Of a stretch of DNA of 64,000 bases, positions 43,926 to 59,146 are shown piece by piece. How positions within the stretch are numbered: position 1 is the stretch's first letter; the number at the start of each line of letters is the position of its first letter. The translations under genes and the position numbers were made by a program. The DNA is from a virus. The stretch lies in UHGV virus genome UHGV-1374997. One strand, 5' to 3'. The notes beneath the pieces were generated by a model. That model did not search any database. It saw only the letters and a program-made list of their open reading frames with translations, and was not told the DNA's origin.

Positions 43926-45205
43926 TGGCATATGCTCCGCGTACCAGCAAAGGTCTTCGATTTTTCCGGGGAACAGGGACAGACCTTGCAACGACATCAT
44001 GGCAGATAATTAATGGTATTTCGGATTGGGCGGCCCCAACACCCACCATCCAATCTATCGATATGACGACGATTAAGGATGAAGCCACTGTATACGCTCC
44101 CGGAATCCGAGAGAGTGGAAGCTCATCTATGACCCTGTATTTTGATGATTTGAATACGATCCACCAGAATCTTTTGATTGCCGATAGTAAATCTGCGGTC
44201 AATATTCCTTATCGTATTGATTTTACAGAAACGGGAACTAGCGTAGCTTTCATGGGGCATCCGACATCCGTTCCAGTATCCGGTTCTGTAGGGTCTGCAA
44301 ATTCAGCAGCTATCACTTTCTACGTTTCAGGCGACCCTGTGTGGGCTTTCGGTTCGGGAAGCAGCCCTGAGCTTGACCCTTCCCAATTTCCGGAATCCAT
44401 AAAAGAAAGATTCGTTATTGTTACCAATGAAGCCGCGATGCTTTCCTTAACAATCACTGATATCCAAAATGGCGATTCAGTGATTGTCAAAGAGCCAAAG
44501 CCTCTTATGTATGCTGTAATCGATGACGGCGCGCTTGGTACAATGGCGGCATTTTATGCGTATCAGTCAAAATCCGATTGGAGTCTTCTTTCCAGCATCC
44601 CCGCCGCATTTAAACCTTCCGCACATGCAGATGAAAGCGCGACATACGGATTAGCAACAACAACTCTGTATGGTCATGCAAAAATAACGACAACTACGCC
44701 AAAAGCTCTTGGCGTAGCCAATATAGGTTCGGAAGACGCATTCGCTAGAGGCGACCATGTTCATCCTGTTCAAAAAGATGTATCAGGGAATGCCGCGACA
44801 GCTACGCAATGGGAAACTCCTAGGACATTCTATATTTCCGGAGTATATAAAGCAGAAGCTATTGTTAATGGAACCCAAAATATAGATTTCGCGTTGGAAA
44901 GAAATATCCAAAGTTTGTCTTCTGGCGCAGGAAACGTTTCTGTTGAATTAATTCCTTCCGTAACCCACATCGTTACAGTGGACCGCGCTTTTACCGTAAC
45001 GCTTCCAGCGGGATTACAATCTGATAAATTCTATGAGTTTCATGCTATACTTAAAGCCGCGAATGCCTCCGCCGCATTAACGATTTCCGAACCTATCCAA
45101 TGGGAAAACAATACGCCTCCTTCTTTGATCGAAAATAAAGTTACTGAAATTCAAATACAAATCTATGGCAATATAAAAATTGGAACATACCGCATATTCA
45201 GTTGA
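43925..45205 (+). CDS. major-tail-protein-like N-terminal domain fused to C-terminal domain (fibre/knob-like)
   Basis: The first 145 aa are paralogous to the major tail protein at 23218 (MAYAPRTSKGLRFFRGTG... versus MAVSYQARTSKGLKFYRGTG...). The C-terminal 280 aa are unrelated. Confidence 0.55.
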   Translation: MAYAPRTSKGLRFFRGTGTDLATTSWQIINGISDWAAPTPTIQSIDMTTIKDEATVYAPGIRESGSSSMTLYFDDLNTIHQNLLIADSKSAVNIPYRIDFTETGTSVAFMGHPTSVPVSGSVGSANSAAITFYVSGDPVWAFGSGSSPELDPSQFPESIKERFVIVTNEAAMLSLTITDIQNGDSVIVKEPKPLMYAVIDDGALGTMAAFYAYQSKSDWSLLSSIPAAFKPSAHADESATYGLATTTLYGHAKITTTTPKALGVANIGSEDAFARGDHVHPVQKDVSGNAATATQWETPRTFYISGVYKAEAIVNGTQNIDFALERNIQSLSSGAGNVSVELIPSVTHIVTVDRAFTVTLPAGLQSDKFYEFHAILKAANASAALTISEPIQWENNTPPSLIENKVTEIQIQIYGNIKIGTYRIFS

Positions 45206-45213
45206 TTTTAACC

Positions 45214-46493
45214 CTGAAAGCACTTCTTGACATTTTCTTACAAACAAGCTATGGTTTAAGCCATGAAAAGAATGCAAGCATATAAATTCCAGCTCCGCCC
45301 CAAAGCCAAGCAAGCAAATCTCATGTTGGGTTTTGCCGGATGCTGTCGCTTTGTCTGGAATAAGGCGCTTGCATTGGAGAAAGAAACCTATCAAGCGGAG
45401 GGCAAACGTCTTGGGTTTTATAACCTTTGTAAGGCCCTCCGCGATTGGAAAAAGGAAGAAGAAACATCTTTTCTTGCTGGAGCACACTCTCAGATATTGC
45501 AGTTTGTATTGAAGGATCTTGATCAGGCTTACAAAAATTTCTTTGAGAAGCGTGCAAATTTCCCACGATTCAAGAAGAAGGGTGTCCACAATACCTTTCG
45601 TTATCCGCAAGGCTTCAAGTTGGATGAAGGAAATAGCCGCATTTATCTTCCCAAAATAGGTTGGGTGCGTTACAGAAAAAGCAGGGTCATAGAAGGGACG
45701 CCAAAGCAAGTAGCGGTTTCTCTTTCTGCCGGAGAGTGGTATGTCTCCATCCTGACTGAGAGGGAAGTAGTTGAACATATCCATCCCTCTCAAAGCTCTA
45801 TTGGTATTGATATGGGTGTTGCCCATTTTGCAATGCTCTCTGATGGAAGCACAATTGAACCGTTGAACAGCTTTCGCAAATATGAAAAGAAGTTGGCAAA
45901 ACTGCAACGCAAACAAGCGAGATGCAAAAAGTTTTCCGCCAACTGGCAAAAGGTCAAATCACGCATTCAACGCTTGCACCTCCACATAGCTAATGCTCGC
46001 AAGGACTTTTTGCACAAGGCAAGCACAATGATTAGCAAAAACCACGCTGTTGTTGTACTTGAAGACTTGAAAGTGCGGAATATGTCCAGCTCAAAGACCG
46101 GAGGAAAACGCAAGTCAGGATTGAATAAATCTATATTGGATCAAGGGTGGTTTGAGTTCCGGCGGCAACTGTCTTACAAGCTGGCATGGATGGGTGGATC
46201 TTTGACCGCAATTCCTCCTCAGTATACCAGCCAGACCTGTAGCCGTTGCGGATGTGTAGATAAACAAAACAGACAAACGCAAGCCAAGTTTAAATGTATA
46301 GCTTGCGGATTTGAGATTAACGCCGATCACAATGCGGCGTTGAATATCTTGGCGGCAGGGCTTGCCGTTACAGCCTGTGGAGCGGGAAAGGCTCAAGCGC
46401 CCGCGTTGAATCAGGAACCCGCCTATAGTTTGGCCTAATTGGGCTTTACTGATAGGAATCCCCCGCTTTTAGGCGGGGGAGGATGTCAAATAA
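45214..46493 (+). mobile_element. IS200/IS605-family TnpB-only element, copy 2
   Basis: Left end cctgaaagcacttcttgacatttt. Right end taattgggctttactgataggaatccc + ccgcttttaggcgggg hairpin + gaggatgtcaaataa. Confidence 0.7.
45263..46438 (+). CDS. tnpB: TnpB (OrfB_IS605) RuvC-like RNA-guided nuclease
   Basis: 391 aa. The C-terminal 230 aa are identical to copy 1. The N-terminal region matches copy 3. Confidence 0.9.
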   Translation: MKRMQAYKFQLRPKAKQANLMLGFAGCCRFVWNKALALEKETYQAEGKRLGFYNLCKALRDWKKEEETSFLAGAHSQILQFVLKDLDQAYKNFFEKRANFPRFKKKGVHNTFRYPQGFKLDEGNSRIYLPKIGWVRYRKSRVIEGTPKQVAVSLSAGEWYVSILTEREVVEHIHPSQSSIGIDMGVAHFAMLSDGSTIEPLNSFRKYEKKLAKLQRKQARCKKFSANWQKVKSRIQRLHLHIANARKDFLHKASTMISKNHAVVVLEDLKVRNMSSSKTGGKRKSGLNKSILDQGWFEFRRQLSYKLAWMGGSLTAIPPQYTSQTCSRCGCVDKQNRQTQAKFKCIACGFEINADHNAALNILAAGLAVTACGAGKAQAPALNQEPAYSLA

Positions 46494-46582
46494 CTCCGTC
46501 GACGGTCGTGGACGCATTTCAATATTTAAAACTCTGCGCTATATTGCCCCCATGATGTTAATCATCACTTGGGGGCTTTATT

Positions 46583-47098
46583 ATGTCTAACGCAACTACA
46601 GGATTTAATCAATCCACATATTCTTCTCCTACGCAGCGTTCTTCTATGCCTATGAACACATATAGCTATGCGATGGTAAGTTCTGATGGTGTTATTTACA
46701 CATGGGATGTCAACGCCGGGAACCAGCCTATCGGGGTAGCCACGGAGATTCACGAAAAACTCAAGGCGCAGCTTATACAAGCGATTGATAAGGCAGAGTC
46801 TTATTATAAGATGCTCGTAGAAAACGGGATTATAAAGCCTGAACCTACGCAAGAAGAAGTTCTTAATAACGCTTTGAAGGAATTGCAGGAATCCCGTGCG
46901 CAGAATGCTAAATTGGCGGAAATGATTGCTGGCCTTACGGATAAGATTCAAGTCATTTCATCGAATATCGCTTCAAATAAATCCGTCAACGAAGAAACTC
47001 AGGACACTCCGAAATTCGTAGATGACGTGATTAAGGAAGATGCAAAGAATCCTCCAGTTAAAATGGAACAAGGCAACAATAGAGGTAATAAACGATGA
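46583..47098 (+). CDS. hypothetical protein
   Basis: 171 aa with a coiled-coil central region. Confidence 0.4.
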   Translation: MSNATTGFNQSTYSSPTQRSSMPMNTYSYAMVSSDGVIYTWDVNAGNQPIGVATEIHEKLKAQLIQAIDKAESYYKMLVENGIIKPEPTQEEVLNNALKELQESRAQNAKLAEMIAGLTDKIQVISSNIASNKSVNEETQDTPKFVDDVIKEDAKNPPVKMEQGNNRGNKR

Positions 47099-47463
47099 AC
47101 GTACAAAAGATCATGAGCATTGTAAATACCTTGTCCGGAGGAAACTCAAAGGTAATTGACGCCGCGCAAAAGGCTATCTCCGAATCTCGTAATTACCAAC
47201 CAACTCTTGAGGGCGCGCTTCAAGTCGCCCAGAAGTTTGGTATTGATGCTCAAATCCTTGCGGGGATGAAGAAACATTTGGACAATCCTGCTATTAAAAT
47301 GGGGCTGAATACCATAGCTCCCGGAAGCATCGACAAAATTACCGAGATGGGGAATCAGCTTGAGGCCGCGCTTCGTCAAAGAGGTCCAGCTCCTGCCTCA
47401 AATGCTCCTAATCCCGGAAATGACGAATTGGCTAAACGCCTTCAAAAACTTGGAATAAAATAA
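47095..47463 (+). CDS. hypothetical protein
   Basis: 122-aa ORF. Confidence 0.4.
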   Translation: MNVQKIMSIVNTLSGGNSKVIDAAQKAISESRNYQPTLEGALQVAQKFGIDAQILAGMKKHLDNPAIKMGLNTIAPGSIDKITEMGNQLEAALRQRGPAPASNAPNPGNDELAKRLQKLGIK

Positions 47464-47542
47464 TACCTTCGGTGATTCGAGAAGAAATTCGCAGTTTCTT
47501 CTCTTCACATATACCCAAAAACTTTTTTATGGAGAATGACTT

Positions 47543-48112
47543 ATGGAATCTGAACGCGAATCTTCCATGAACTTCGGCTGGATCTTTATCGTGCTGCTCC
47601 TGTTCTTCGGGATCTTCGGCGGTGGCTTCGGCTGCGGTGGCAACGGCCTGTTCGGTCGTGGTAATTGCGGTGGTGCCGCTGCTGTTGCTGGTACTGAGCT
47701 TGCTGATCTGGTCGCGCTGCGCTCCGTGCTTGGTCACAAGACCATGACGGATAACTGCCAGACCGACCGCGATGTTCTGGAACTCAAGTGCAACATGACT
47801 GCGCAGAACGCTGTGCTGACGCAGCGGCTTGAAACTGCCTTCCGCACGATTATCTCTAATCAGGACGCTGGTTTCTCGGCTCTGCGTACTCAGATGCTCG
47901 AAGACCAGATTCGTACCCGCGACATGACCCTGATGGCTCAGAACAACGAAATTCAGGGGCTCAAGGCGCAGATGTACAATGACGGTCGTTTCAACGCTCT
48001 GGAACGCTCCATTGAAGCTGGTTTCTGCCAGACTGTCAAGCGTCCGCCCTTCTTCCCCGTGGGTTGCTCCCCGTGCGTGAATCCTTGTGGTTGCGGTGGC
48101 GTCACCGCCTAA
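47543..48112 (+). CDS. membrane protein with Gly/Cys-rich segments and coiled coil; GC-rich codon usage
   Basis: RBS ggagaa. TM helix followed by GGGFGCGGNG, and a C-terminal CSPCVNPCGCGG. Local GC is around 58% against roughly 42% overall. Confidence 0.5.
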   Translation: MESERESSMNFGWIFIVLLLFFGIFGGGFGCGGNGLFGRGNCGGAAAVAGTELADLVALRSVLGHKTMTDNCQTDRDVLELKCNMTAQNAVLTQRLETAFRTIISNQDAGFSALRTQMLEDQIRTRDMTLMAQNNEIQGLKAQMYNDGRFNALERSIEAGFCQTVKRPPFFPVGCSPCVNPCGCGGVTA

Positions 48113-48136
48113 CACGGGCTGATTTCACCTTGATAT

Positions 48137-48164
48137 GAGAGGGGCGCAATTAAACCCCTCTCAT
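48137..48164 (+). terminator. hairpin tgagagggg...cccctctca
   Basis: Directly after the 47543 gene. Confidence 0.45.
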
Positions 48165-48189
48165 TAACCACAATGTACGGAGAATTACT

Positions 48190-48627
48190 ATGTGCAATCG
48201 CTGCTGCATTCCGTGCATCCGTGTAGCAAGTATCACTACAACCGCCACGACTGCGACTCTTACTCTGGCTACCAGTATCCCGGTAGGAAGATTTGATATC
48301 GTAGTTGGAAAGAACTTGTGCATCAGTCCTTGTGCTGATGAAAAAGTTCAGATTGTTGCTGGAGGCGATACGTTTACGAACGTACTCAACACCTCTGGGA
48401 ACTATCTTACCCTTGGACAACTTTCTCGTTTCGTTCGATGCGGCTGCCGCATTCGTATGACTCAAACGAGCAATCCTGCGGGTAACATCATGGCTATTGA
48501 TGTGTCTTGCCCCGGCCCTAACGGAGTACCCATCGTAAACTGCGGGACATCTTTGCTTCCCGCAACCGCCTCTGCTTCCCTCGCTTCCCCGGAACTTGAC
48601 AAGTCGGAAGCCCCCGCTAAGAAATAA
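48190..48627 (+). CDS. Cys-rich hypothetical protein
   Basis: N-terminus MCNRCCIPC. 145 aa. Confidence 0.4.
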   Translation: MCNRCCIPCIRVASITTTATTATLTLATSIPVGRFDIVVGKNLCISPCADEKVQIVAGGDTFTNVLNTSGNYLTLGQLSRFVRCGCRIRMTQTSNPAGNIMAIDVSCPGPNGVPIVNCGTSLLPATASASLASPELDKSEAPAKK

Positions 48628-48734
48628 AGTATCCGGGATTTGGGAACATACGTAGCCTATGACTACGTAACCCCTACCGCGCAGCGTGGGACGATTTTTA
48701 TCTTCTCGCGCTGCGTTTTTATTAAGGAAATACC

Positions 48735-49124
48735 ATGTTTAGATTAGGACTCGGTATCCTGTTAGGATGGCTTATCTTTGATGAAGAAGGGAAAAAGGCT
48801 TCGAATAAGGCTGGTAAATTTATCAAAGATAAATCCGGTGAAGCCATAGACTATGCGTCTAAGCATATTGATACGGATAAAGTCGCTGATTTCGTTAAAA
48901 AGCAAATTTCCCCGAAAGGCATCGCTGAAAATATCGCCCAAGACGTAGCTGAGGATGCTATCATAGATACGGTTGCAGAGGAAGCTGTGCTTGGTAATGC
49001 CGCCGGAGGCATTCTAGCCGGAGAAACTTTGGCTACCGAACGAAACAACGAAAATTTGAATCAAATTGATCTTCTTCAACAGCGCGTGGATGCTTTGACA
49101 GCGGAAACCACGCCCATTATATAA
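48735..49124 (+). CDS. hypothetical protein with N-terminal hydrophobic segment
   Basis: 129-aa ORF. Confidence 0.4.
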   Translation: MFRLGLGILLGWLIFDEEGKKASNKAGKFIKDKSGEAIDYASKHIDTDKVADFVKKQISPKGIAENIAQDVAEDAIIDTVAEEAVLGNAAGGILAGETLATERNNENLNQIDLLQQRVDALTAETTPII

Positions 49125-49144
49125 CCACCACAAGGAAATGAATC

Positions 49145-49669
49145 ATGCACGATAGCAAATCCGCCGAAAAGATTGCAAAAGAAGAGTATAAAGAAGAACT
49201 TGCATTCTTGGAAGAACTTGAACATGAAATTGGCGAGCATTGTGAAGCTGGCGTCAAATCAATGCCCCATGTCGAAAACACTCGTGAACTACTTAAAGCA
49301 CATAAAGAATTGTGCCATTATCTCATGTATAAGTGCGCTATTCATGAAATGTCGGAATATTCCGAAGTGTATCATGAGATTGAAGACGTTATTGAAAATC
49401 CGCCCCATACGTGGTATCCCTACATGGATAAACCGGGCGGGCACATGAATATCATTGAGATGGAAGTCGGAGAGATGATGCACGCCTATGAAGGAATGCG
49501 CGCCACGCCTCCCACGATGACCCATGCTCAATTCGTACACGAGCTTAAACATGCCGCCGCCGCAATCTGCTACGCTCTGGAAGAAATGACCTGCTCTGAC
49601 AAGGAATACCATAAAAAGCACCATTTCCATAAGCCGTATCCCGAAGAATACGGTTCTAAGGCGAAATAA
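49145..49669 (+). CDS. His-rich hypothetical protein
   Basis: 174 aa with many His and Glu residues. Confidence 0.4.
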   Translation: MHDSKSAEKIAKEEYKEELAFLEELEHEIGEHCEAGVKSMPHVENTRELLKAHKELCHYLMYKCAIHEMSEYSEVYHEIEDVIENPPHTWYPYMDKPGGHMNIIEMEVGEMMHAYEGMRATPPTMTHAQFVHELKHAAAAICYALEEMTCSDKEYHKKHHFHKPYPEEYGSKAK

Positions 49670-49671
49670 TC

Positions 49672-49881
49672 ATGAACATCGAATCTGATCGCGGGATAGA
49701 TACAGGACAATCGGAATCTAAGACTTTCGGATGGATACCTTGTGCATTATGCAAGGCATGGATTCCGATTGTCAAAGACGGAGTACACGAACCTCCGAAA
49801 CACGGTATCTGCCCGTATCGGAAGCCCTCTAAATGCAAAACGGAACCTAGCTTCGGTTGTCGTTGGGGCTTTACTGCTTAA
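49672..49881 (+). CDS. hypothetical small protein
   Basis: 69-aa ORF. Confidence 0.3.
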   Translation: MNIESDRGIDTGQSESKTFGWIPCALCKAWIPIVKDGVHEPPKHGICPYRKPSKCKTEPSFGCRWGFTA

Positions 49882-49916
49882 TCAGAAATTCTCCCTACCT
49901 CCTTCCCATCCCTCCC

Positions 49917-49950
49917 TTAAAGGCGTCTATCCGGACGCCTTTTTCTTTTC
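49917..49950 (+). terminator. rho-independent terminator
   Basis: aaaggcgtc-tatccg-gacgccttt followed by ttcttttc. Confidence 0.6.
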
Positions 49951-49979
49951 TTGACAAAAATGTAAAATGAAGCTATACT
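49951..49979 (+). promoter_or_regulatory. sigma70-like promoter TTGACA-17-TATACT upstream of terminase
   Basis: Consensus-like hexamers with 17-nt spacing. Shares the 17-mer TTGACAAAAATGTAAAA with 19375. Confidence 0.55.
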
Positions 49980-50022
49980 TCTTTGATAATACCATTTTTG
50001 TCAGATAAGGAGAGGAGTTTCA

Positions 50023-52158
50023 ATGGCTAATGTAAAACCCATAACGACTAAACAATTCAATCAAAATAAAAAGCATATCACCGACATCCATTGGTACGCC
50101 GACAATGTTCTTAATGGAAATGTTCAGGTCTGTAAATACATTAGAGCATTATGCAAGAACTTTAAAGATGACCTCGCCAATAAAGACCTTGATTTTTATT
50201 TTTCAGAAGAATCAGCTATCCGAGTAATTTGTTTTATCGAAAATATGGTGCATGTCAAGGGCGTTCTTACCGGGCAACGGTTAAAACTTGAACCTTGGCA
50301 GAAATTTTTTGTCGGTAACATCTTCGGCTGGCTGGACAAGAAAAACAATCTCCGCAGATACAGAGAGGCAGCTCTTATCGTTCCCCGAAAAGCTGGCAAG
50401 GCTTTAGCTGTAAGCACTCCAATCCCTACTCCCGAGGGTTGGGTCACGATGAATGATTTAAAGCCCGGAGACGCCGTTTATGGGCCAAATTCGGATATAC
50501 GGAGAGTAGTAGCCGCAACGGAAGTGATGTACGGAAGGCCGTGCTACGAAATTTCTTTCAATGATGGTTCTTCTATTACGGCTGACGCGGAACATCTTTG
50601 GAAAATTGATGGTAAGAATATCGTAACCTCCGAAAGTCTGCATCAAATTTTGTCTCACAATGGCAGAAAGCCTAAAGTATGGGTAGCCCCGAATGTAAAA
50701 CGGCATGATGGCGAGACGGTACCTGTGGTAAGATTCATTACGGATTGTAAGCCTGTGGAAAGCGTTCCAGTGAAGTGTATACAGGTTGATAATGAGGACG
50801 GAATGTATCTTTGCGGGGAAACGTATATTCCGACTCACAATAGCAGCCTTGCGGCGGCTATTGGACACTATATGTTGGTTGGTGAAAAAGAAAAAGGTTC
50901 GGAAGTATACTGTGGCGCAACCACGGAAGTTCAGGCATTTGTGCTGTTCAACATTGCTCGGGACATGATTGTCGCCAATAAAGCATTTGAAGAGGCATTC
51001 GGCCTGACTTATACTAAAGAGTCTATTCATGCACAATCAACACTTTCTACGTTCAAGCCTATTATCGGAAGCCCAAAGGACGGTAGTAACCCTCAGTGCG
51101 CTATCGTTGACGAGTATCATGAACATCCTTCGGACGCGCTGTATGACTCGTTGAAGCTCGGTATGGGCGCTAGACAACACCCCCTCTTGCTTGTTACTAC
51201 TACCGCAGGGACAAACATCAAAGGGCCTTGCTATCGTTACGTTGAGCAAGGCAGAAAGGTCGTGTTGGGGAAAGCAAAGAACGATAGATTATTTTACATG
51301 GAGTTTACCATTGATGACACGGACAAATGGGAAGATTTTTCGTGCTGGATTAAAGCCAGTCCAAACTTCGGAGTTTCCGTATCCGAAGAGTTCTTGCGCG
51401 AGCAATACGAAATAGCCAAATCATCACAGTACAAGCGCTCATCTATTCTTACCAAAATGCTGAATGTTTGGAACAACGAATCGGTGGGATGGATTGACTT
51501 TCCTAAATGGCTTAATTGTACTGACAGAAATCTAAAGATGGAAGATTTTGAAGGCGAGAAATGCTGGATTGGCATTGACTTAGCCTCTAAAGTCGACTTA
51601 ACTGCAATGGTTGCCGTCTTTAAGCGCGATGGTAAATTCTATGTTTTCGGAAAATACTATCTTCCTTCTGATACTGTAGATAGGCCGGAGAATGACCATT
51701 ATCGGGGCTGGCGAGATGAAGGCTGGCTGACCGTAACGCAAGGGGCTCGAACGGACTATCACGCTCTGGAAGAAGACCTGCAAAATTGGGCTGATAAATA
51801 TGCTATTCAGGAAGTAGCATACGACCCTAGAGAAGCCGAATATCTTATGCAGAATATCCGGGAATGGGCAGCTTTTGAATGTATTGAGTTTACCCAATCC
51901 TCTGCCACTTTCTCTGAGCCGATGAAAGAGTTTGAAGCTGCGTACCTTAACGGGGAACTTTTCCACCAGAATGACCCTATCCTCAATTTCGCAGCAGGGA
52001 ATGTCGTCCTGAAATCCACAACGAACAAACTTGTCTATATGACCAAAACGGCAAATGAAAATAAAATCGACCCGATGGTTGCTATGATTATGGCAATCGC
52101 TAGAGCAATGGAAGATAAAGAAGAAGAGGCGTCAGATCCGTTTATTATGTTCCTTTAG
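50023..52158 (+). CDS. terL: terminase large subunit, interrupted by a mini-intein
   Basis: Removing residues 127-273 joins the Walker A motif PRKAGK|SSLAAAIG, matching the canonical VPRKNGKS[TS]LAAA. The C-terminal nuclease domain is present. Confidence 0.8.
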   Translation: MANVKPITTKQFNQNKKHITDIHWYADNVLNGNVQVCKYIRALCKNFKDDLANKDLDFYFSEESAIRVICFIENMVHVKGVLTGQRLKLEPWQKFFVGNIFGWLDKKNNLRRYREAALIVPRKAGKALAVSTPIPTPEGWVTMNDLKPGDAVYGPNSDIRRVVAATEVMYGRPCYEISFNDGSSITADAEHLWKIDGKNIVTSESLHQILSHNGRKPKVWVAPNVKRHDGETVPVVRFITDCKPVESVPVKCIQVDNEDGMYLCGETYIPTHNSSLAAAIGHYMLVGEKEKGSEVYCGATTEVQAFVLFNIARDMIVANKAFEEAFGLTYTKESIHAQSTLSTFKPIIGSPKDGSNPQCAIVDEYHEHPSDALYDSLKLGMGARQHPLLLVTTTAGTNIKGPCYRYVEQGRKVVLGKAKNDRLFYMEFTIDDTDKWEDFSCWIKASPNFGVSVSEEFLREQYEIAKSSQYKRSSILTKMLNVWNNESVGWIDFPKWLNCTDRNLKMEDFEGEKCWIGIDLASKVDLTAMVAVFKRDGKFYVFGKYYLPSDTVDRPENDHYRGWRDEGWLTVTQGARTDYHALEEDLQNWADKYAIQEVAYDPREAEYLMQNIREWAAFECIEFTQSSATFSEPMKEFEAAYLNGELFHQNDPILNFAAGNVVLKSTTNKLVYMTKTANENKIDPMVAMIMAIARAMEDKEEEASDPFIMFL
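50401..50841 (+). other. mini-intein (147 aa, Ala1, class-3-like WCT features) in terminase P-loop
   Basis: Block A ALAVST. Block B TADAEHLW. Blocks F/G VKCIQVDNEDGMYLCGETYIPTHN followed by extein Ser. There is no homing-endonuclease domain. Confidence 0.7.
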
Positions 52159-52165
52159 CGTACGT

Positions 52166-52247
52166 TAACACATACAATAGCACCCGATTAATCGCGGAAT
52201 CAATGGAAAGAGATTCATAGATTAATCGGGTGCTATTGTATGTGTTA
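52166..52247. repeat. 30-bp perfect inverted repeat with 22-nt spacer
   Basis: gttaacacatacaatagcacccgattaatc ... gattaatcgggtgctattgtatgtgttaac. Lies between the convergent terL (+) and the 52262 gene (-). Confidence 0.8.
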
Positions 52248-52261
52248 CTAGTTAAGAACTA

Positions 52262-52678
52262 TTAAAGGAACAATCCTTCTCCTCCAAAATGATATTCAGG
52301 TTGCTTATACCGCTCAATGACAAGACCCGGAGAGGAAAATCTTTTAATCAGATACAGGATCATATCAATATATTCTTCCGCGTTAAGTTGATCAAAATCA
52401 AATCCTCGATAAATATTGCTTTTATAATGATCAAGATATCCGGAAGATTTCAAGAAAGCCACACCTTTACTTCTTTTATCCAGATAAGAGTCGCTTCTCG
52501 TAAAATCAAAATTTTTAAGCACCCTTTCATATGCTACTTCAAATTGAGCTACATCAGAGACTCTATATTTGAATGTTTTCTTTTTACCATCTCCCAAAGT
52601 GACACTGATTTTGATGATTTCCATATGTTCATTCCTTATTAATTGATTTAAGAAATAATGTATGAACGCATCTATCAA
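52262..52678 (-). CDS. hypothetical protein
   Basis: 138-aa ORF. Confidence 0.4.
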   Translation of the reverse strand: MIDAFIHYFLNQLIRNEHMEIIKISVTLGDGKKKTFKYRVSDVAQFEVAYERVLKNFDFTRSDSYLDKRSKGVAFLKSSGYLDHYKSNIYRGFDFDQLNAEEYIDMILYLIKRFSSPGLVIERYKQPEYHFGGEGLFL

Positions 52679-52856
52679 TTATGAAACAAACGCTAATGAT
52701 AGGCAGTAAAAAGAAGAAAAAGGTTATACTAAAATCTTTTGATCTTAGTTCATCGGAAAATAGAAGTAATCCAATCGCAAAGATTATGGAGCTTATTGTC
52801 AGGTCATAGTATTTAAGAGCCTGTAAATTCTTTGCGAAGAATATTGATCGCTTCAT
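52629..52856 (-). CDS. small membrane protein
   Basis: 75 aa with two hydrophobic helices. Confidence 0.35.
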   Translation of the reverse strand: MKRSIFFAKNLQALKYYDLTISSIIFAIGLLLFSDELRSKDFSITFFFFLLPIISVCFIIDRCVHTLFLKSINKE

Positions 52857-53061
52857 TTATGGCATCCTCTCCTTCGGTCGTATCGAAAATGATATCGTGT
52901 GTTAATCCTTCCTTTAAAAATATAGTTATGACATTATCTTTCTTCTTAATTCCGACAATACTGTCAATTTCAAAAAATTCAATATCGGATGATAGGGTAT
53001 TGTCAAAAATAAGATAATTTTTTTTTGAGCGTAAAGGCTTTTCATCAAGATTATAATACAT
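52813..53061 (-). CDS. hypothetical protein
   Basis: 82-aa ORF. Confidence 0.35.
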   Translation of the reverse strand: MYYNLDEKPLRSKKNYLIFDNTLSSDIEFFEIDSIVGIKKKDNVITIFLKEGLTHDIIFDTTEGEDAINEAINILRKEFTGS

Positions 53062-53329
53062 TTTTAATCCCCTTTTTATTTACGACATAAAAACGCTGAC
53101 CTTTCGGTGGATCTGGCCTTTCAGGGCAAACCCACCCTTTTGGATGCGAGACTATATGGGCTCCTGCTTTGTCATCTTCATTCCCTAGTAGGTAGAATAA
53201 CAGAAGGATAAGAAGCGCGGAGAATATTATGATAAACACTGTCTCTATCCTCCTTTGAAGGAAATACAAATCTTCGATCAAAAATTTCAGTTTTAGTTTC
53301 CAACGATATGACCAATTCATGGTAGTCAT
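53051..53329 (-). CDS. hypothetical membrane protein
   Basis: 92 aa with a hydrophobic helix. Confidence 0.3.
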   Translation of the reverse strand: MTTMNWSYRWKLKLKFLIEDLYFLQRRIETVFIIIFSALLILLLFYLLGNEDDKAGAHIVSHPKGWVCPERPDPPKGQRFYVVNKKGIKNVL

Positions 53330-53421
53330 CGTAGTCCCCGCGCATAAGAATGATGCGGTCTAAATCAATAGCTATTTTCCTTTCAAGCGTGACGCCATAC
53401 TAAAAGCTATAAAGTTTCATT

Positions 53422-53643
53422 CTACCCCCTATTACTACTCATTATGAGAAGTCTAGAAAATGCTTCATCTCTACATTCCTCGGAAGAAAAAGAATACTCA
53501 AAAACATGGTCTTTATTGCTTCCGCATAGTATAATTTGAAGTTTCATACTGCCATTTTCCTTACTCATTGAGATTATTCTATGCGTGTCAATGGCTTCTA
53601 CGAATTCGTTATTCATTCCAAATCGAAAATTTACCAATTTCAT
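53422..53643 (-). CDS. hypothetical protein
   Basis: 73-aa ORF. Confidence 0.3.
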   Translation of the reverse strand: MKLVNFRFGMNNEFVEAIDTHRIISMSKENGSMKLQIILCGSNKDHVFEYSFSSEECRDEAFSRLLIMSSNRG

Positions 53644-54011
53644 GCCGATCCCTTCCCTTTCCGATAGTCGGAGGTTATTTTTGAATGACAGGATTTACAT
53701 AACGCCATAAGGTTGTTTTCGTCAAGTATTTTTCCACCCTCGTTAATAGGAATGATATGGTGGACTTCGTTAGCCACGTTAGGGAATGGGGTCGTTTTCT
53801 CGCATTCCTCGCAGAAGGGGTGCTTCCTGAGATAACGCTCACGAACTTTCTTCCACCTTGAATCGTACCCTCTTTCCGCCGGGGTTCCGCGCTTCATATC
53901 ATATCGTTTATCTGACGAGATTCTGTGCTTGGCACAATCTTCGCAGTACCCCGAAGGGTGATCCGTTGGCTTTTTACAGTGCTTACATGGTTTTTTTGGT
54001 CTAGGGGGCAT
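53640..54011 (-). CDS. HNH endonuclease
   Basis: Cys pairs CKHCKK...CEDC and CEEC...HHIIP...N...LCKSCH. Confidence 0.75.
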   Translation of the reverse strand: MPPRPKKPCKHCKKPTDHPSGYCEDCAKHRISSDKRYDMKRGTPAERGYDSRWKKVRERYLRKHPFCEECEKTTPFPNVANEVHHIIPINEGGKILDENNLMALCKSCHSKITSDYRKGKGSA

Positions 54012-54107
54012 ATATGGACCTCCATAATTAATCGTATTTTATTGATAAGGTTCCAGCGGAAAGAAACCACGCCAGTCTATAGACAGCTCCACTAAGTTGG
54101 TCTTTGC

Positions 54108-55375
54108 TTATTTGACATCCTCCCCCGCCTAAAGTCGGGGGATTCCTATCAGTAAGGCCCAATTAGACCAAACTATAGGCGGGTTCCTGATTCAACGCGG
54201 GCGCTTGAGCCCTTCCCGCTCCACAGGCTGTAACGGCAAGCCCTGCCGCCAAAATGTTCAACGCCGCATTGTGATCAGCGTTAAATTCAAATCCGCAAGC
54301 TGTACATTTAAATTTGGCTTGCGTTTGTCTGTTTTGTTTATCCACACATCCGCAACGGCTACAGGTCTGGCTGGTATACTGAGGAGGGATTGCGACCAAA
54401 GATCCACCCAACCATGCCAGCTTGTATGTCAACTGCCGCCGGAACTCAAACCACCCTTGATCCAATATAGACTTATTCAAACCTGACTTGCGTTTTCCTC
54501 CTGCCTTTGAGCTGGACATATTCCGCACTTTCAAGTCCTCAAGCACAACAACAGCGTGGTTTTTGCTAATCATTGTGCTTGTCTTGTGCAGAAAGTCCTT
54601 GCGAGCATTAGCTATGTGGAGGTGCAAGCGTTGAATGCGTGATTTGATCTTTTGCCAGTTGGAGGAAAACTTTTTGCATCTTGCTTGTTTGCGTTGCAGT
54701 TTTGCCAACTTCTTTTCATATTTGCGAAAGCTATTCAACGGTTCAATTGTGTTTCCATCAGAGAGCGTTGCAAAATGAGCAACACCCATATCAATACCAA
54801 TAAAACTTTTAGACGGATGAATAGGCTCCGGAGCTTCACGCTCTGTCAGAATGGATACATACCATTCTCCAGCAGAAAGAGAAACCGCTACTTGCTTGAG
54901 AGTCCCTTTTATAGCCCGGCTTTTTCTGTAACGCACCCAACCTATTTTGGGAAGATAAACGCGGCTATTTCCTTCATCCAACTTGAAGCCTTGCGGATAG
55001 CGAAAGGTGTTGTGAGCACCTTTCTTCTTGAATTGAGGGAAATTTGCACGCTTCTCAAAGAAATTTTTGTAAGCCTGATCAAGATCCTTCAATACAAACT
55101 GCAATATCTGAGAGTGCGCTCCAGCAAGAAAAGATGTTTCTTCTTCCTTTTTCCAATCACGGAGGGCCTTACAAAGGTTATAAAACCCAAGCCGTTTTCC
55201 CTCCGCTTGATATGTTTCTTTCTCCAATGCAAGCGCCTTATTCCAGACGAAACGGCAGCACCCGGCAAAACTCAACATGAGATTTGCTTGTTTGGCTTTA
55301 GGACGTAACTGGAATTTGTATGCTTGCATTCTTTTCATGGCTTAAATTATACTCAGTTTATAGGTAAATGTCAAG
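54108..55375 (-). mobile_element. IS200/IS605-family TnpB-only element, copy 3 (inverted)
   Basis: The right end matches copy 2 through gggggaggatgtcaaataa. The left end carries a 68-bp copy-specific segment with a G9 tract. Beyond that, 55443-55476 matches the upstream flank of copy 1. Confidence 0.7.
54163..55338 (-). CDS. tnpB: TnpB (OrfB_IS605) RuvC-like RNA-guided nuclease
   Basis: 391 aa. Motifs IGIDMGV, VVLEDL, CSRCGC...CTACG and NADHNAALNI are intact. About 93% identical to copies 1 and 2. Confidence 0.9.
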   Translation of the reverse strand: MKRMQAYKFQLRPKAKQANLMLSFAGCCRFVWNKALALEKETYQAEGKRLGFYNLCKALRDWKKEEETSFLAGAHSQILQFVLKDLDQAYKNFFEKRANFPQFKKKGAHNTFRYPQGFKLDEGNSRVYLPKIGWVRYRKSRAIKGTLKQVAVSLSAGEWYVSILTEREAPEPIHPSKSFIGIDMGVAHFATLSDGNTIEPLNSFRKYEKKLAKLQRKQARCKKFSSNWQKIKSRIQRLHLHIANARKDFLHKTSTMISKNHAVVVLEDLKVRNMSSSKAGGKRKSGLNKSILDQGWFEFRRQLTYKLAWLGGSLVAIPPQYTSQTCSRCGCVDKQNRQTQAKFKCTACGFEFNADHNAALNILAAGLAVTACGAGRAQAPALNQEPAYSLV

Positions 55376-55559
55376 TTATTTTTTTTTCGGGATAGGGGGG
55401 GGGGTTATCGCAAGTCTTTATAGTCTATTATTCATGAGTAAAGGCAAAAATTCCAGTTAAGGTGCGCCTTATATCCTCCCCCTAAAGAGAGAGAGAGGTT
55501 TTACGGCGCGTCCGATAAAAAGCATATAATGTGGCTTACGAAATTATTATTCATGGATT

Positions 55560-55943
55560 TTACTTTTCCTCAGACATAAAAATGTAAAAATGATTTTTTG
55601 CGGGCTCGCAATATTGCCATTTGAGTATATGAGACGTATCAGTTGACCTACTCCCCATATATTTCAACTCACCTTCTTGTATCTTCTTATTAAAAAATCC
55701 TATATACCACACTTTTTTATCGTCGCTAAAAGCTACAAGTTCTCCCTCCCGAAATTCCTGATCTGGGGCATCGTAAGTCCCCGCAAGATGTTCGTTACCT
55801 TCGTAAGGAATGCAATACTTACACACAATCAAGCTGGTATCTTTAAAAGCGTCCCCTACCTTTCCCGAAAAAAGCGCGGGCTCCCAAATTTCATGTTCAG
55901 AATCTCGCATCAAGACTTTATCAAAAGGCTTAAAATCGTACAT
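55560..55943 (-). CDS. hypothetical protein, paralog of 56264..56641
   Basis: Shares FDKVL.RDSE..IW....F.....YCIP..GNEHL.GT...CEPAKNHF. Confidence 0.45.
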   Translation of the reverse strand: MYDFKPFDKVLMRDSEHEIWEPALFSGKVGDAFKDTSLIVCKYCIPYEGNEHLAGTYDAPDQEFREGELVAFSDDKKVWYIGFFNKKIQEGELKYMGSRSTDTSHILKWQYCEPAKNHFYIFMSEEK

Positions 55944-55967
55944 TATGTAATCTCCTTTTTAAGCTGG

Positions 55968-56252
55968 TTAAAACAATACATGTTTCATTTTACGGTCAAA
56001 CAATCCTTCAAGATAGTCAATTTCTTCCTCAGAAAAATTGAAATTAAAACCTAGCATAAGATGATTACGTGCGAAAGGGTCAAGTTTCCATGCTTGAAAC
56101 CTTTCTTCTTTTTGATTGTCTCCCCATTTGATAGTACATTCCCGATAAAAAGCATTCGTTAAAGTCTTTTCTTGCCCATCCACTGTGAGAGTGAGCCACC
56201 CATCAGTAATATCTGAGTTCCATTCGTAACGTATGAGCTTGATTTCACGCAT
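55968..56252 (-). CDS. hypothetical protein
   Basis: 94-aa ORF. Confidence 0.4.
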   Translation of the reverse strand: MREIKLIRYEWNSDITDGWLTLTVDGQEKTLTNAFYRECTIKWGDNQKEERFQAWKLDPFARNHLMLGFNFNFSEEEIDYLEGLFDRKMKHVLF

Positions 56253-56263
56253 TATCTATTCTC

Positions 56264-56641
56264 CTAAGAATTAAATTCAAAGTGATTTTTTGCGGGCTCG
56301 CAACAGTCCCATTCTTGACATCCGCTAGATGAAGTGCACCCGAAGGTGACAAAGAGCTTTTTATCGTTACAGATTATTATTTCTTTAAAAATTCGCAAAT
56401 GCCAAACAGATTCATAGTTGTCTCTAACCGCCACAAGGTCGCGTTGCTTAGGCACCCATTCACTATTCTTTGTCCCCACAAGATGCTCATTGCCGAGGGC
56501 AGGGATGCAATATTCCCAAAGAGCTTCATTAATAGCTATAACCTTCCCATCTCTTCTATAATGAGAGAAAAATGTTGCGACCCAAATATCATCTTCGGAA
56601 TCCCTAACCAAAACCTTATCAAACATTTTAAACTCAGGCAT
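56264..56641 (-). CDS. hypothetical protein, paralog of 55560..55943
   Basis: Same conserved motifs as its paralog. Confidence 0.45.
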   Translation of the reverse strand: MPEFKMFDKVLVRDSEDDIWVATFFSHYRRDGKVIAINEALWEYCIPALGNEHLVGTKNSEWVPKQRDLVAVRDNYESVWHLRIFKEIIICNDKKLFVTFGCTSSSGCQEWDCCEPAKNHFEFNS

Positions 56642-57024
56642 TAGATTTCCTCCTTTATTATATTTTGTTCCGCCATAATAAATGCCGCATCAATTTCCTT
56701 AGCTATTTGGTCAGCAATATAATCCTCATCTTTAACTCCATCTTTCTCTACAGACATGGACGCTAGGCATAAAAGAGCATCCGAAAGAATCTTGACCGAC
56801 TTACACGCCGCAACGATATACTTAGCGTTGGCAAGCTGTTGCTCTCTCAGGACGTTTTGAGCAGGATAGTCCTTACAGACATACATGCTTACCATTGCGA
56901 TATGCTTGTCTCCGCAGTTAATGGCTCCATGACAATGAGACTCGTCAAGATGCCAATCGCCTCCATTCGTAGCGGCTTTCCTTAGCTTTTCCAATCCTGT
57001 AAGGAATCTAAGACTTTCGTTCAT
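56641..57024 (-). CDS. hypothetical Cys/His-containing protein
   Basis: Start reassigned to MNESL with RBS aaaggatgg. Confidence 0.4.
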   Translation of the reverse strand: MNESLRFLTGLEKLRKAATNGGDWHLDESHCHGAINCGDKHIAMVSMYVCKDYPAQNVLREQQLANAKYIVAACKSVKILSDALLCLASMSVEKDGVKDEDYIADQIAKEIDAAFIMAEQNIIKEEI

Positions 57025-57385
57025 ATCTCGCCATCCTTTCTTCATGTTCCATTTCCGCCTCGACCATAAGTTCAGCTTCACGCAAAAGGCACCAATTACC
57101 GCAACCGGGGAAGCTTCCACCTTTGCGCGGACACAAAGCCTTCATACTGTGAGCGCAAGGTACATCATTGTAATCCATGCTAATCAGTTTAATCTTTACG
57201 CGAGACTCGAACATAAGAGCGTCATAATAGTCAGGATACAAGGAATCAAAATACCCTCTTTCCGGACAATCTCTGCACATAAGGGAGGATTGATATTCAC
57301 AATTTTTGCATTGATCGATAAAATAAACTCTGTTTTTAAGCCACTCTTTTTCCTTGTTTGTAAGACCGTACTTGTTTTTTCTCAT
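57008..57385 (-). CDS. Cys-rich hypothetical protein
   Basis: CKNCEY...CRDCPERG...CAHS...CPRKGGSFPGCGNWC. Confidence 0.4.
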   Translation of the reverse strand: MRKNKYGLTNKEKEWLKNRVYFIDQCKNCEYQSSLMCRDCPERGYFDSLYPDYYDALMFESRVKIKLISMDYNDVPCAHSMKALCPRKGGSFPGCGNWCLLREAELMVEAEMEHEERMARYERKS

Positions 57386-57407
57386 GATGTCAATTCTCCT
57401 TTAATTT

Positions 57408-57620
57408 TTATCGGTTATCTGGCAATCCCAAAGTTATAAGCCTCGTAAGAACATGAGGTTTCGGAACTCCGAAAAGCATTGAGAGCCTAGTAATACTATA
57501 ATTATGTTCCTCTGCTTTCTCTCTAAACAATTCCTCCGGCATCAAAAGCTCGTATGCGAATAGGTTAGCTTCAATCTCTTCTTCTCTCGTAAATTGCTTT
57601 GATTCGTTTTTCATGCCCAT
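57408..57620 (-). CDS. stand-alone ImmA/IrrE C-terminal-domain mini-protein (no HEXXH)
   Basis: EANLFAYELLMPEELFRE...FGVPKPHVLTRLITLGL matches the family pattern EAN.FA.ELLMP....RL..LG. Has its own promoter and RBS agggagg. Confidence 0.5.
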   Translation of the reverse strand: MGMKNESKQFTREEEIEANLFAYELLMPEELFREKAEEHNYSITRLSMLFGVPKPHVLTRLITLGLPDNR

Positions 57621-57641
57621 TTCCTCCCTCTCTTGAAATAG

Positions 57642-57670
57642 ATACTACGAAATTATATTGGAGGTGTCAA
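57642..57670 (-). promoter_or_regulatory. sigma70-like promoter TTGACA-17-TAGTAT (leftward)
   Basis: The minus-strand sequence is ttgacacctccaatataatttcgtagtat. It lies 30 nt upstream of the ATG at 57620. Confidence 0.5.
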
Positions 57671-57691
57671 TACTTTTTTGTTTAAACTACA

Positions 57692-57741
57692 AGATAAAAA
57701 TAAAGACTTGTGACGATTCAGGTTGTCACAAGTCTTTATTT
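57692..57741 (-). terminator. 13-bp stem hairpin with flanking A/T runs (terminator of SPFH operon, possibly bidirectional)
   Basis: aaagacttgtgac-gattcaggtt-gtcacaagtcttt. Confidence 0.55.
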
Positions 57742-57745
57742 GCAT

Positions 57746-58630
57746 TTATTCGAGGGGGATATTCAGCATCGGAATATTCTCGCCAGTAACCTTGGGCAAT
57801 ACTCCATTCCATCCTGTAGCCATGATGTATCGGATAAGCTCAGGGGTAAGGGACTCAGCGAGCTTCTTATTCGCTGTATATTGAGCTTCCGCTTTCTTCG
57901 TAATGGAATATGCCTCGGCGTCCGCAATCTTTCGCATAGATTCCGCACGGCCTTCCGCCTCGGCTTTCTTCTTATCCGCCTCAGCTTGCGCAGTTTCAAT
58001 TTCTGTGCGACGCTGCGTAGCAATCTGAATAGCGCCTACCTTAGCATCAATCGCTTCCTTTACGTTCTGGGGAAGCCAGATATTGCCAACAATGGCAATG
58101 TAATCAATCTTAATCCCAAGAGGCGCAAGACGTTCACGAACGGCCTCCGTCACCTGCATGATAAACTCGGTCTTCTTTTCCCCGTAAAGCTGCTCAGAAG
58201 TCCTCGTAGAAGCGGCACGGACAATCTCGTCTCGAATCATATTGTAAACGTATACGTTCGTGATTTCGTCAATGCCCTTTCTGTACGTCTGGAAAAGCAA
58301 AGACACTTTATCGGGATCAACGGAGTAAGACAGAGAAACGTCAGCACTGAGAGAAAGCCCTTCCTTGGATTGGAATTGGAATGCGCCGCTATTTCCGGTT
58401 CCCCGCCATTCCTTTGTCTGCTGCGCCGTAGAGAACGTGAAAAGCTGTTCATTGATGCCTACCCAATAGCGGCCTACACCAAGCTTTTCAGTATCCACAC
58501 CTTTCGACGAGCCAAGCAAATTCACCTTTACGCCGACATATCCAGCCTCGACTTTCTCAATACAAGTAAGAGCGTAAATGCCGAAAGCAAGGACAAAAAC
58601 AAGAGTAACACACGCGATAATCTTTTTCAT
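57746..58630 (-). CDS. SPFH/band-7 (HflC/flotillin-like) membrane protein
   Basis: N-terminal TM helix. SPFH core (AGYVGVKVNLLG...) and the Ala/Glu/Lys-rich coiled-coil tail AEADKKKAEAEGRAESMRKIADAEA typical of band-7 proteins. Confidence 0.75.
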   Translation of the reverse strand: MKKIIACVTLVFVLAFGIYALTCIEKVEAGYVGVKVNLLGSSKGVDTEKLGVGRYWVGINEQLFTFSTAQQTKEWRGTGNSGAFQFQSKEGLSLSADVSLSYSVDPDKVSLLFQTYRKGIDEITNVYVYNMIRDEIVRAASTRTSEQLYGEKKTEFIMQVTEAVRERLAPLGIKIDYIAIVGNIWLPQNVKEAIDAKVGAIQIATQRRTEIETAQAEADKKKAEAEGRAESMRKIADAEAYSITKKAEAQYTANKKLAESLTPELIRYIMATGWNGVLPKVTGENIPMLNIPLE

Positions 58631-58890
58631 TATACATCTTCCTTAGAAATAATTTTAAAAATTTTATAACTCAAAAATACAGTTACGGGGAAACTAATAA
58701 TCAATGCCGCTCCGGTCAGAACCAAAGCCGTAGATTCGGAACTAATCAAAAACGGCAGAAGAAATCCAAACAGCCCAATCACATAAACCAGATTGATCAA
58801 GACGTAAACCAAAAATAGGAGAATATCATCTTCCGTCTTTTGTAGAATTGAAGCACCCTTTTCCGTTTTTTCGTTATTCATCGGAACCAC
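58630..58890 (-). CDS. small two-TM membrane protein, putative SPFH partner (NfeD/YqiJ-like role)
   Basis: 86 aa with two TM helices. Its stop overlaps the SPFH start, indicating translational coupling. Confidence 0.45.
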   Translation of the reverse strand: MVPMNNEKTEKGASILQKTEDDILLFLVYVLINLVYVIGLFGFLLPFLISSESTALVLTGAALIISFPVTVFLSYKIFKIISKEDV

Positions 58891-59146
58891 CTTTATGATC
58901 TAGTTTTTCCCGGAGCTTCCATTCTTGGATAGAACGCTGGAGATATCCTTTTTCCCATTCTTCCACTCCTACCTCCTTTTTTACGGCTACCATAGCGTTT
59001 CTTACTTCCGCGCAAGACCGTTTCAATGCTGCGGTATACGTTACTCCAGCATACTCGTAGCCAAGAGCGGCTACGAGCCTTGCCCGTTCGAGAAATCTTT
59101 CGCACTCAAAGATTGCGGTGTCTACGGTTTTCTTATTAATACTCAT
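58874..59146 (-). CDS. hypothetical protein
   Basis: 90-aa ORF. Confidence 0.4.
   Translation of the reverse strand: MSINKKTVDTAIFECERFLERARLVAALGYEYAGVTYTAALKRSCAEVRNAMVAVKKEVGVEEWEKGYLQRSIQEWKLREKLDHKGGSDE

Follow-up and report, generated by a model that had tools for sequence, protein, structure and literature searches.

A probable class 3 mini-intein inside the Walker A motif of the large terminase of an uncultured phage

The gene for the large terminase (TerL) in the virus genome UHGV-1374997 is interrupted, within the P-loop of its ATPase domain, by 147 in-frame codons, and this insert, a candidate intein, is the subject of the present analysis. The window, by which the whole 64-kb stretch of DNA analyzed is meant, is phage DNA: it carries genes for a helicase, a DNA polymerase, NrdD, a portal, a major head protein, a tape measure and a J-like tail protein. 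The terminase gene, with the host-protein segments flanking the insert termed exteins, is organized as follows:

50023..52158, + strand: terL precursor gene, 711 codons plus stop, encoding an HK97-type large terminase with a putative intein (open reading frame list, Pfam, tblastn)
50023..50400, + strand: N-extein, amino acids 1-126, ending ...IVPRKAGK, the first part of Walker A (aligns to HK97 TerL, 6Z6D, up to RKnGK)
50401..50841, + strand: probable class 3 mini-intein of 147 amino acids (ALAVSTPIPTPEGW...GETYIPTHN), codons 127-273 (PDB matches, AlphaFold2 and Foldseek, alignment of relatives, substitution ratios)
50842..52158, + strand: C-extein, amino acids 274-711, with what remains of the ATPase domain plus the whole nuclease domain (Pfam, 6Z6D alignment)

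Sequence comparison identifies the host protein of the insert as an HK97-type large terminase. In the 711-amino acid precursor, the Pfam family TerL_nuclease matches residues 420-697 with 158 bits, and the TerL_ATPase match is split into two partial stretches, the best of which begins at residue 289 and ends at 406. Excision in silico of residues 127-273 yields a single TerL_ATPase match spanning profile positions 1-172 of 178 and raises its score from 68.5 to 80.5 bits; the spliced sequence scores 80.5 bits with TerL_ATPase (PF03354) and 159 bits with TerL_nuclease (PF20441), the cut-offs being 23.7 and 24. The joined flanks (...PRKAGK followed by SSLAAAIG) read PRKAGKSSLAAAIG, a Walker A motif. 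The spliced sequence, which at 564 amino acids represents the mature terminase of the 711-amino acid reading frame, can be aligned to structure 6Z6D of the HK97 large terminase (E = 6.7e-35) without a gap over the junction (livPRKaGKSslaaai versus lsiaRKnGKTgliagi). Homologs without an intein carry GKS or GKT exactly at the insertion point, the closest there being P0006 (PRKSGKSLIANAIA, 55% extein identity) and P0013 (PRKQGKTTMVV). With slashes marking the junctions, the DNA reads AAA GCT GGC AAG / GCT TTA GCT GTA AGC ACT ... ACT CAC AAT / AGC AGC CTT, translated as KAGK / ALAVST...THN / SSL; the insert sits between Lys126 and Ser274 of Walker A (PRKAGK/...THN/SSL).

A first-pass annotation, made from the letters of the DNA, had proposed a mini-intein at 50401-50841 (residues 127-273) of a 711-amino acid large terminase, the removal of which would restore the terminase P-loop PRKAGK-SSLAAAIG. 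Its coordinates and flanks are exact, residue 127 being GCT and residue 273 AAT, followed by AGC. The assignment of the reading frame to a large terminase is upheld by the TerL_ATPase and TerL_nuclease matches, and the restoration of the P-loop by the single TerL_ATPase match and the gap-free 6Z6D alignment, in both of which the exteins align to terminase ATPase domains. The comparison with intein-less terminases that it had called for finds P0006, P0013 and HK97 TerL uninterrupted at this point. The precursor has a calculated mass of 80.9 kDa, spliced TerL one of 64.7 kDa and the free intein one of 16.2 kDa, in agreement with the earlier estimates of about 64 and 16 kDa for the two products.

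By sequence and by predicted fold, the insert is an intein. Searched with phmmer against PDB sequences, it matches three class 3 DnaB intein entries over its full length (query 1-147) with E values of 2.9e-32 to 1.3e-31, well outside the range of chance: the Mycobacterium chimaera DnaB-1 intein (6RIX, 6RIY) and the M. smegmatis (Msm) DnaBi1 intein (6BS8, the sequence of which is also that of 6OWN). Identity to these solved DnaB inteins is about 53%, and the gp41-1 inteins rank after them. An AlphaFold2 model, which rests on a small alignment and has a mean pLDDT (per-residue confidence) of 79.4, is a HINT domain built of beta strands, its one helix lying in the linker. Foldseek places the same three entries at the top of its PDB matches (6RIX, 6RIY and 6BS8; E about 1e-12, TM 0.7-0.77); all 48 matches at E <= 0.001 are inteins, except for a few bacterial intein-like (BIL) and hedgehog HINT domains. 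Base composition proved uninformative as a sign of recent acquisition, with a guanine-plus-cytosine (GC) content of 0.458 in the intein versus 0.434 in the exteins, and 0.422 versus 0.452 at third codon positions (GC3). Antisense open reading frames over the intein (50458..51036, 192 amino acids, minus strand, and 50196..50447) were considered as separately encoded endonucleases and rejected: neither has a Pfam match, and the 192-amino acid frame, broken by a stop in 4 of the 16 contigs described below, is judged spurious on both counts.

Class 3 inteins, WCT triplet included, were defined by Tori et al. 2010 (PMC2807308), and Kelley et al. 2016 (PMC5050341) locate the triplet at positions B12 (Trp), F4 (Cys) and G5 (Thr) of the conserved blocks. 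Their signature was examined in an alignment of 18 sequences, in which the window intein is set against 15 homologous inteins from TerLs and the two solved ones from DnaB. Twelve of its positions do not vary: T6, G23, C48, F53, D62, H65, W67, I113, C126, T145, H146 and N147. The relatives counted below come from the best 150 of 9,187 proteins found with the intein as query; 149 inteins were extracted from these by a regular expression requiring the block F Cys and [TS]HN. Numbered from the first residue of the insert, the signature residues are:

50401..50403, + strand: Ala1 (GCT), block A position 1, a non-nucleophilic first residue (Ala in 131 of 149 related inteins)
50542..50544, + strand: Cys48, corresponding to Cys48 of Msm DnaBi1 (the same in all 18 aligned sequences; found in 131 of 148 relatives)
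50584..50601, + strand: block B core D62-A-E-H65-L-W67, of DxxH form, with the His at B10 and the WCT Trp at B12 (D62, H65 and W67 invariant)
50776..50778, + strand: Cys126, block F position 4, predicted to start splicing as its first nucleophile (opposite Cys118 of Msm DnaBi1 in the alignment)
50833..50841, + strand: end of block G, with T145 (G5, the WCT Thr), H146 (the penultimate His) and N147 (the predicted cyclizing Asn) (invariant in the 18 sequences and in 16 contigs)
50842..50844, + strand: Ser+1 (AGC), predicted C-extein nucleophile and then Walker A Ser/Thr (Ser/Thr in 142 of 149 relatives; aligns with the Thr of HK97 TerL GKT)

W67, C126 and T145 of the window intein align with W67, C118 and T137 of Msm DnaBi1, Cys126 lying in the context VPVKCIQVD opposite VPVRCVEVD. 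His65 and Trp67 bear the same numbers as in both Msm DnaBi1 and the DnaB intein of mycobacteriophage Bethlehem (MP-Be). The insert thus combines Ala1, W(B12), C(F4), T(G5), a block B His in DxxH and Ser+1, the features that define class 3; class 1, which has Cys, Ser or Thr at position 1, is ruled out by the Ala there. Since Ser+1 aligns with the Thr of HK97 TerL GKT, it would play a double role, first as splicing nucleophile and then as the Walker A Ser/Thr, as has been described for the +1 residue of DnaBi1 (PMC6195587).

The intein identity, the Ala at position 1 and the W/C/T signature claimed in the first-pass annotation are sustained by the PDB matches, the fold and the 18-sequence alignment, and the splice-junction residues (H146-N147 / S+1) are conserved over the homologs and over the 14 alleles described below. 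Its absence of an endonuclease likewise stands, as the insert is only 147 amino acids long, has no LAGLIDADG or HNH match in Pfam and lacks the LAGLIDADG block of its relatives. Blocks A, F and G (THN followed by Ser) were read correctly; block B was not, as its form is DxxH (D62-A-E-H65) rather than TxxH, the Thr taken for it being T60, five residues ahead of the His. DxxH is the block B form of the class 3 intein DnaBi1 (Kelley et al. 2018, PMC6195587), and Asp occupies B7 in 135 of 148 relatives.

Natural variation was assessed in 16 contigs, namely the window, five contigs from Logan and ten from IMG/VR, which represent 14 distinct alleles. All 14 have 711 codons without a stop and retain A1, C48, D62, H65, W67, C126, T145, N147 and S+1. 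As means of all allele pairs, which are not independent, Nei-Gojobori estimates of synonymous (dS) and nonsynonymous (dN) divergence are 0.21 and 0.0095 for the intein (dN/dS 0.046) and 0.28 and 0.0014 for the exteins (dN/dS 0.005), and in four contigs 12-16 intein codons are changed relative to the window, every change being synonymous. Purifying selection on the intein is strong, though some tenfold weaker than on TerL, and the dN/dS of 0.046 lends indirect support to splicing, which is very probable. The similarity of its dS to that of the exteins points to long co-inheritance and not to recent invasion. Exactly this TerL protein is encoded again in no fewer than 34 assembly blocks and in 10 IMG/VR contigs.

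Inteins of this kind are neither new nor rare. Inteins that lack an N-terminal nucleophile were reported in DnaB, RecG, SNF2 and phage terminase large subunits, mostly at the ATPase P-loop, by Tori et al. 2010 (PMC2807308), and terminase P-loops appear as sites of class 3 inteins in publications of 2010 and 2016 (PMC2807308, PMC5050341). A phmmer search with the intein against 1.84 billion cluster representatives returned the 9,187 proteins mentioned above at E <= 1e-3, and 4,164 at E <= 1e-10. Among the 149 inteins extracted from the best 150, besides the counts for Ala1 and Ser/Thr+1 already given, 101 follow GK and 20 are shorter than 200 amino acids. Many top matches (P0157-P0186 and others) are proteins of 1,200-1,900 amino acids with 4-6 matched stretches, corresponding to two or more class 3 inteins per protein. 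In Pfam, ten carriers of mini-inteins comprise five TerLs of HK97 type, one of T4 type (P0284), two DnaB proteins and two without a match. Among the best 120 TerL homologs, 16 have an intein at this site, 4 of them mini-inteins. A tblastn search of GenBank phages found a match to the intein in 445 records, including T4-like coliphages, RaK2, B3/B23, SOVA965 and many Mycobacterium phages; a word-index homolog search with the intein alone gave 36 short fragments (DnaB, FtsK-like or unannotated) and was uninformative.

The closest characterized systems are the mycobacterial DnaB inteins, Msm DnaBi1 (6BS8, 6OWN) and M. chimaera DnaB-1 (6RIX, 6RIY). The identity of about 53% extends over the splicing domain; the mycobacterial inteins are 139-145 amino acids long as compared with 147 in the window, and none has a homing endonuclease. 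Ala1, Cys48, Asp62, His65 and Trp67 are equally numbered in both, the block F Cys, THN and Ser+1 are shared, and all are inserted between the GK and the S of a P-loop. The host protein is different, a bacterial replicative helicase in mycobacteria and a phage large terminase in the window, as are the sequence and length of the linker (residues 68-111) and the source, a metagenomic phage of 42% GC and not an actinobacterium. The host protein is shared with the mycobacteriophage inteins TerL1-a and TerL1-b (PMC5050341), which carry the class 3 WCT triplet and lie in the Walker A region of TerLs of the terminase_1/TerL_ATPase type; TerL1-a was reported to separate the invariant Lys from the nucleophilic Thr, an arrangement also seen in the window (PMC5050341). 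Unlike the window intein, they contain LAGLIDADG endonucleases and measure about 340 amino acids, and the Minerva gp9 intein, 41% identical to that of the window, is inserted two residues further on (SRQNGKGD/LGHNT...PTHN/S). The class 3 prototype, the Bethlehem DnaB intein (PMC2807308), has the non-nucleophilic residue 1, His65/Trp67, the F4 Cys, the G5 Thr and Thr/Ser+1 in common with it, but differs in its Pro1, its homing endonuclease (341 amino acids in all) and its DnaB host.

The TerL inteins of Escherichia phage ECD7 (gp17) and its relatives, Stenotrophomonas phage SOVA965, Klebsiella phage RaK2 and Synechococcus phages B3/B23 belong to the same family, with 40-55% identity and the same GK/S or GK/T site in Walker A: in ECD7, whose TerL is of the unrelated T4 type, the junctions read SRQLGK/ALDVNT...PTHN/TT, and in SOVA965 GKGNGK/PISLET...PTHN/SP. 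In contrast to the window intein they have kept the LAGLIDADG endonuclease, and their records say terminase. Most similar in architecture are metagenomic TerLs with a class 3 mini-intein of 129-174 amino acids at GK/S or GK/T, namely P0211, P0250, P0283, P0294 and P0300 (HK97 type), P0284 (T4 type), and P0002, P0004 and P0005. They differ from the window in sequence, their exteins being 30-50% and their inteins 44-60% identical to it, and the last three have Gly1 and Thr+1. The combination of a TerL with a class 3 mini-intein at the P-loop is therefore recurrent and already known, and holds little surprise for specialists. A 2025 survey of actinobacteriophages gave class 3 sizes of 225-359 amino acids; that a class 3 TerL mini-intein of 147 amino acids falls beyond this range reflects sampling and not a difference in kind.

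The relatives also show that an endonuclease has been lost from the intein. Same-site relatives of 334-429 amino acids carry a LAGLIDADG domain (Pfam PF14528 or PF05204) between the block B and block F regions. In alignments, this block of roughly 200-290 amino acids, seen in P0003, P0007, P0009 and others, is absent from the window intein, in which a linker of 44 residues (68-111) remains. The start of the linker, NIVTSESLHQILSH (helix 77-86 in the model), is matched in the long forms by the stretch ahead of the endonuclease. Since that stretch is shared and the LAGLIDADG block is gone, the mini-intein arose through loss of the endonuclease. Its relationships do not follow those of its host: the closest exteins without an intein are those of P0006 (55% identity) and P0008 (52%), and other close exteins, those of P0002-P0005 (47-51%), contain a divergent Gly-start intein of 41-46% identity. 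The most similar inteins, those of P0034 (61%), P0211 (60%) and P0009 (58%), sit in exteins that are merely 38-42% identical. Judged from these identities, intein and extein histories are uncoupled, as would be expected from past homing between terminase genes and subsequent loss of the endonuclease. The P-loop inteins of P0002-P0005 begin with Gly (GLALDT or GLSLDT), have Thr+1 and keep the W, C and T; they form a Gly-start class 3 subclade in the TerLs closest to that of the window, P0003 with an endonuclease and the others as mini-inteins.

These data have led us to regard nucleotides 50401-50841 as, very probably, a functional mini-intein of class 3 that belongs, with mycobacterial DnaBi1, to the P-loop family and resides in the large terminase of the phage. 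By homology with the MP-Be DnaB and Msm DnaBi1 inteins, we infer the following splicing chemistry. The 80.9-kDa precursor would be unable to form a P-loop. (i) Cys126 (F4), aided by His65 and Trp67, would attack the peptide bond between Lys126 of the N-extein and Ala1, giving a thioester-branched intermediate; (ii) the N-extein would be handed to the hydroxyl of Ser+1; (iii) cyclization of Asn147 would release the 16.2-kDa intein; and (iv) an O-to-N acyl shift would produce the 64.7-kDa TerL with a native GK-S bond and an intact GKS P-loop. TerL inteins at related mycobacteriophage sites have been shown experimentally to splice (PMC5050341). Having lost its LAGLIDADG homing endonuclease, the intein would no longer be mobile and would be inherited vertically with terL, its splicing competence kept by selection on packaging. 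As the P-loop would not exist before splicing, ATP-driven packaging should depend on it; the precursor of the P-loop intein of Pyrococcus horikoshii RadA loses ATPase activity, as cited by Kelley et al. (PMC6195587). The dependence should hold all the more as this terL is the sole TerL in the window: tblastn with the spliced extein and the intein as queries found neither a second terL nor a second intein of the same family in the 64 kb.

Three observations weigh against this interpretation. First, the window is 64 kb of a genome of maybe ~85-90 kb, the remainder of which might hold a second terminase. Second, the intein and Hint models of Pfam and NCBIfam remain below threshold on the insert (Hint_2, E = 0.067), as does NCBIfam rSAM_Rv_intein, a model of intein-containing radical-SAM proteins, which scores 17.5 bits against a cut-off of 700. 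These scores reflect the poor coverage of class 3 inteins by such models, which is why public records call such genes plain terminase. Third, nonsynonymous sites evolve about 10 times faster in the intein than in the extein.

A further proposal would add to the splicing model and does not exclude it: a disulfide between Cys48 and Cys126, or Zn bound at Cys126/Tyr136, might reversibly block splicing and gate TerL maturation and packaging, depending on the host's redox or metal state. C48, C126, I127 and Y136 of the window intein correspond to C48, C118, V119 and Y128 of Msm DnaBi1, in which a reversible C48-C118 disulfide formed under oxidative stress, and Zn at C118/V119/Y128, inhibit splicing (PMC6195587, PMC7360933); Cys48, moreover, is invariant in the 18-sequence set and frequent among the wider relatives. 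Against this, Cys48 is itself needed for splicing in Msm DnaBi1 (PMC7360933), so that its conservation is explained without a regulatory role, 17 of the 148 relatives do without it, and a selfish element that became fixed accounts for all the observations. We therefore consider such gating unlikely. Equally doubtful, and argued by analogy with DnaBi1, is the idea that the mini-intein has been retained beyond the difficulty of its precise loss, as a post-translational packaging gate that would leave TerL inactive under oxidative or metal stress and active under reducing conditions. If true, gating would provide the first example of virion assembly under the control of an intein.

It is very improbable that the insert splices by another route, such as one in which the +1 residue attacks the N-terminal junction directly, as in class 2, or that it is a cleavage-only Hint or BIL-type domain. 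Ala1 is common to class 2 inteins, and the mechanism has been deduced from sequence; yet class 2 (KlbA) inteins have Cys+1, Asp at F4 and no WCT triplet (PMC2807308), so that the Ser+1, the Cys at F4 and the W and T of the window rule this class out. Experiments have placed the nearest relatives of known structure, about 53% identical to the insert, in class 3. Nor does the insert resemble a BIL or other non-splicing Hint domain, since BIL domains, which occur in the variable parts of non-conserved proteins, are not sited in catalytic motifs with a motif-completing +1 nucleophile, and here the insert lies inside Walker A and Ser+1 is the P-loop Ser. Least credible of all is a decayed, splicing-dead relic in a terL that is a pseudogene or encodes a non-packaging protein: loss of the homing endonuclease is a step in intein decay and standard profile libraries do not recognize the insert, but its catalytic residues are intact in all 14 alleles at the low dN/dS given above, the reading frame of the sole terL in the window is uninterrupted, and the wide recurrence of the protein among assembly blocks and IMG/VR contigs fits a thriving phage.

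Several other features of the window concern the phage and the surroundings of terL:

16866-18194: portal gene, 33 kb from terL rather than adjoining it
45226-46493, + strand, and 54108-55375, - strand: inverted copies of an IS605-type element, 1268 nucleotides each and 93% identical, bracketing the terL region
53640-54011, - strand: HNH endonuclease gene, 123 amino acids (Pfam HNH, E = 1.8e-12), about 1.5 kb downstream of terL

TerL is encoded by the final gene of a long rightward late block, and no small-terminase family match was found among the open reading frames just upstream of it (48190-49669). Each IS605-type copy encodes a 391-amino acid TnpB (Pfam HTH_OrfB_IS605, OrfB_IS605 and Cas12f1-like_TNB), with no TnpA seen. 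The copies vary among near-identical contigs, three (L001-L003) having neither at these places and two (L004, L005) only the right-hand one, which points to recent TnpB mobility within the phage population. The closest bacterial TnpB relatives (L019-L026; 69-76% amino acid identity, the best of them 75-76%) come mostly from metagenome-assembled genomes of gut Desulfovibrio/Mailhella, from chicken, rabbit and Hadza human samples; they hint weakly at a Desulfovibrionaceae host or a gut habitat, being too distant, and 42% GC fits poorly. The 123-amino acid HNH gene is kept in all related contigs, and its product could be a terminase partner like HK97 gp74 or a free-standing homing endonuclease. 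Directly after terL lies a patch of low GC (52200-53600; 0.29-0.37 versus 0.42 for the window), whose small minus-strand open reading frames have no family matches. Its gene content differs between near-identical contigs (120, 82 and 73 amino acids in L001 versus 226 and 99 in L004), identifying it as a hypervariable accessory-gene spot. Scans of the window for tRNA genes and Rfam families found nothing.

The lineage, with TerL 99-100% identical, occurs in many independent assemblies, in contigs of up to 90 kb. The IMG/VR contigs (L008-L017) all come from dataset 3300045988, and the Logan contigs from runs SRR32653988, ERR636366, SRR8898571, SRR27381199 and ERR13959541. The window belongs to a common, apparently widespread uncultured phage of roughly 85-90 kb. 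A megablast search with positions 44000-60000 found no match among GenBank phages, which indicates that the phage has no close sequenced relative there.

For annotation, the finding means that this gene should be recorded as an intein-containing terL with a mature product of 564 and not 711 amino acids. Models in Pfam and NCBIfam miss class 3 inteins, and pipelines consequently label such genes as plain terminases. The current understanding of inteins is left unchanged. With Ser+1 as its sole requirement and an origin in a non-actinobacterial background of 42% GC, a class 3 mini-intein of 147 amino acids is a possible additional scaffold for protein engineering, and it could serve to probe how general the redox and zinc control of mycobacterial DnaBi1 is. 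For phage biology, it adds a further case in which the production of virions should depend strictly on protein splicing at a P-loop.

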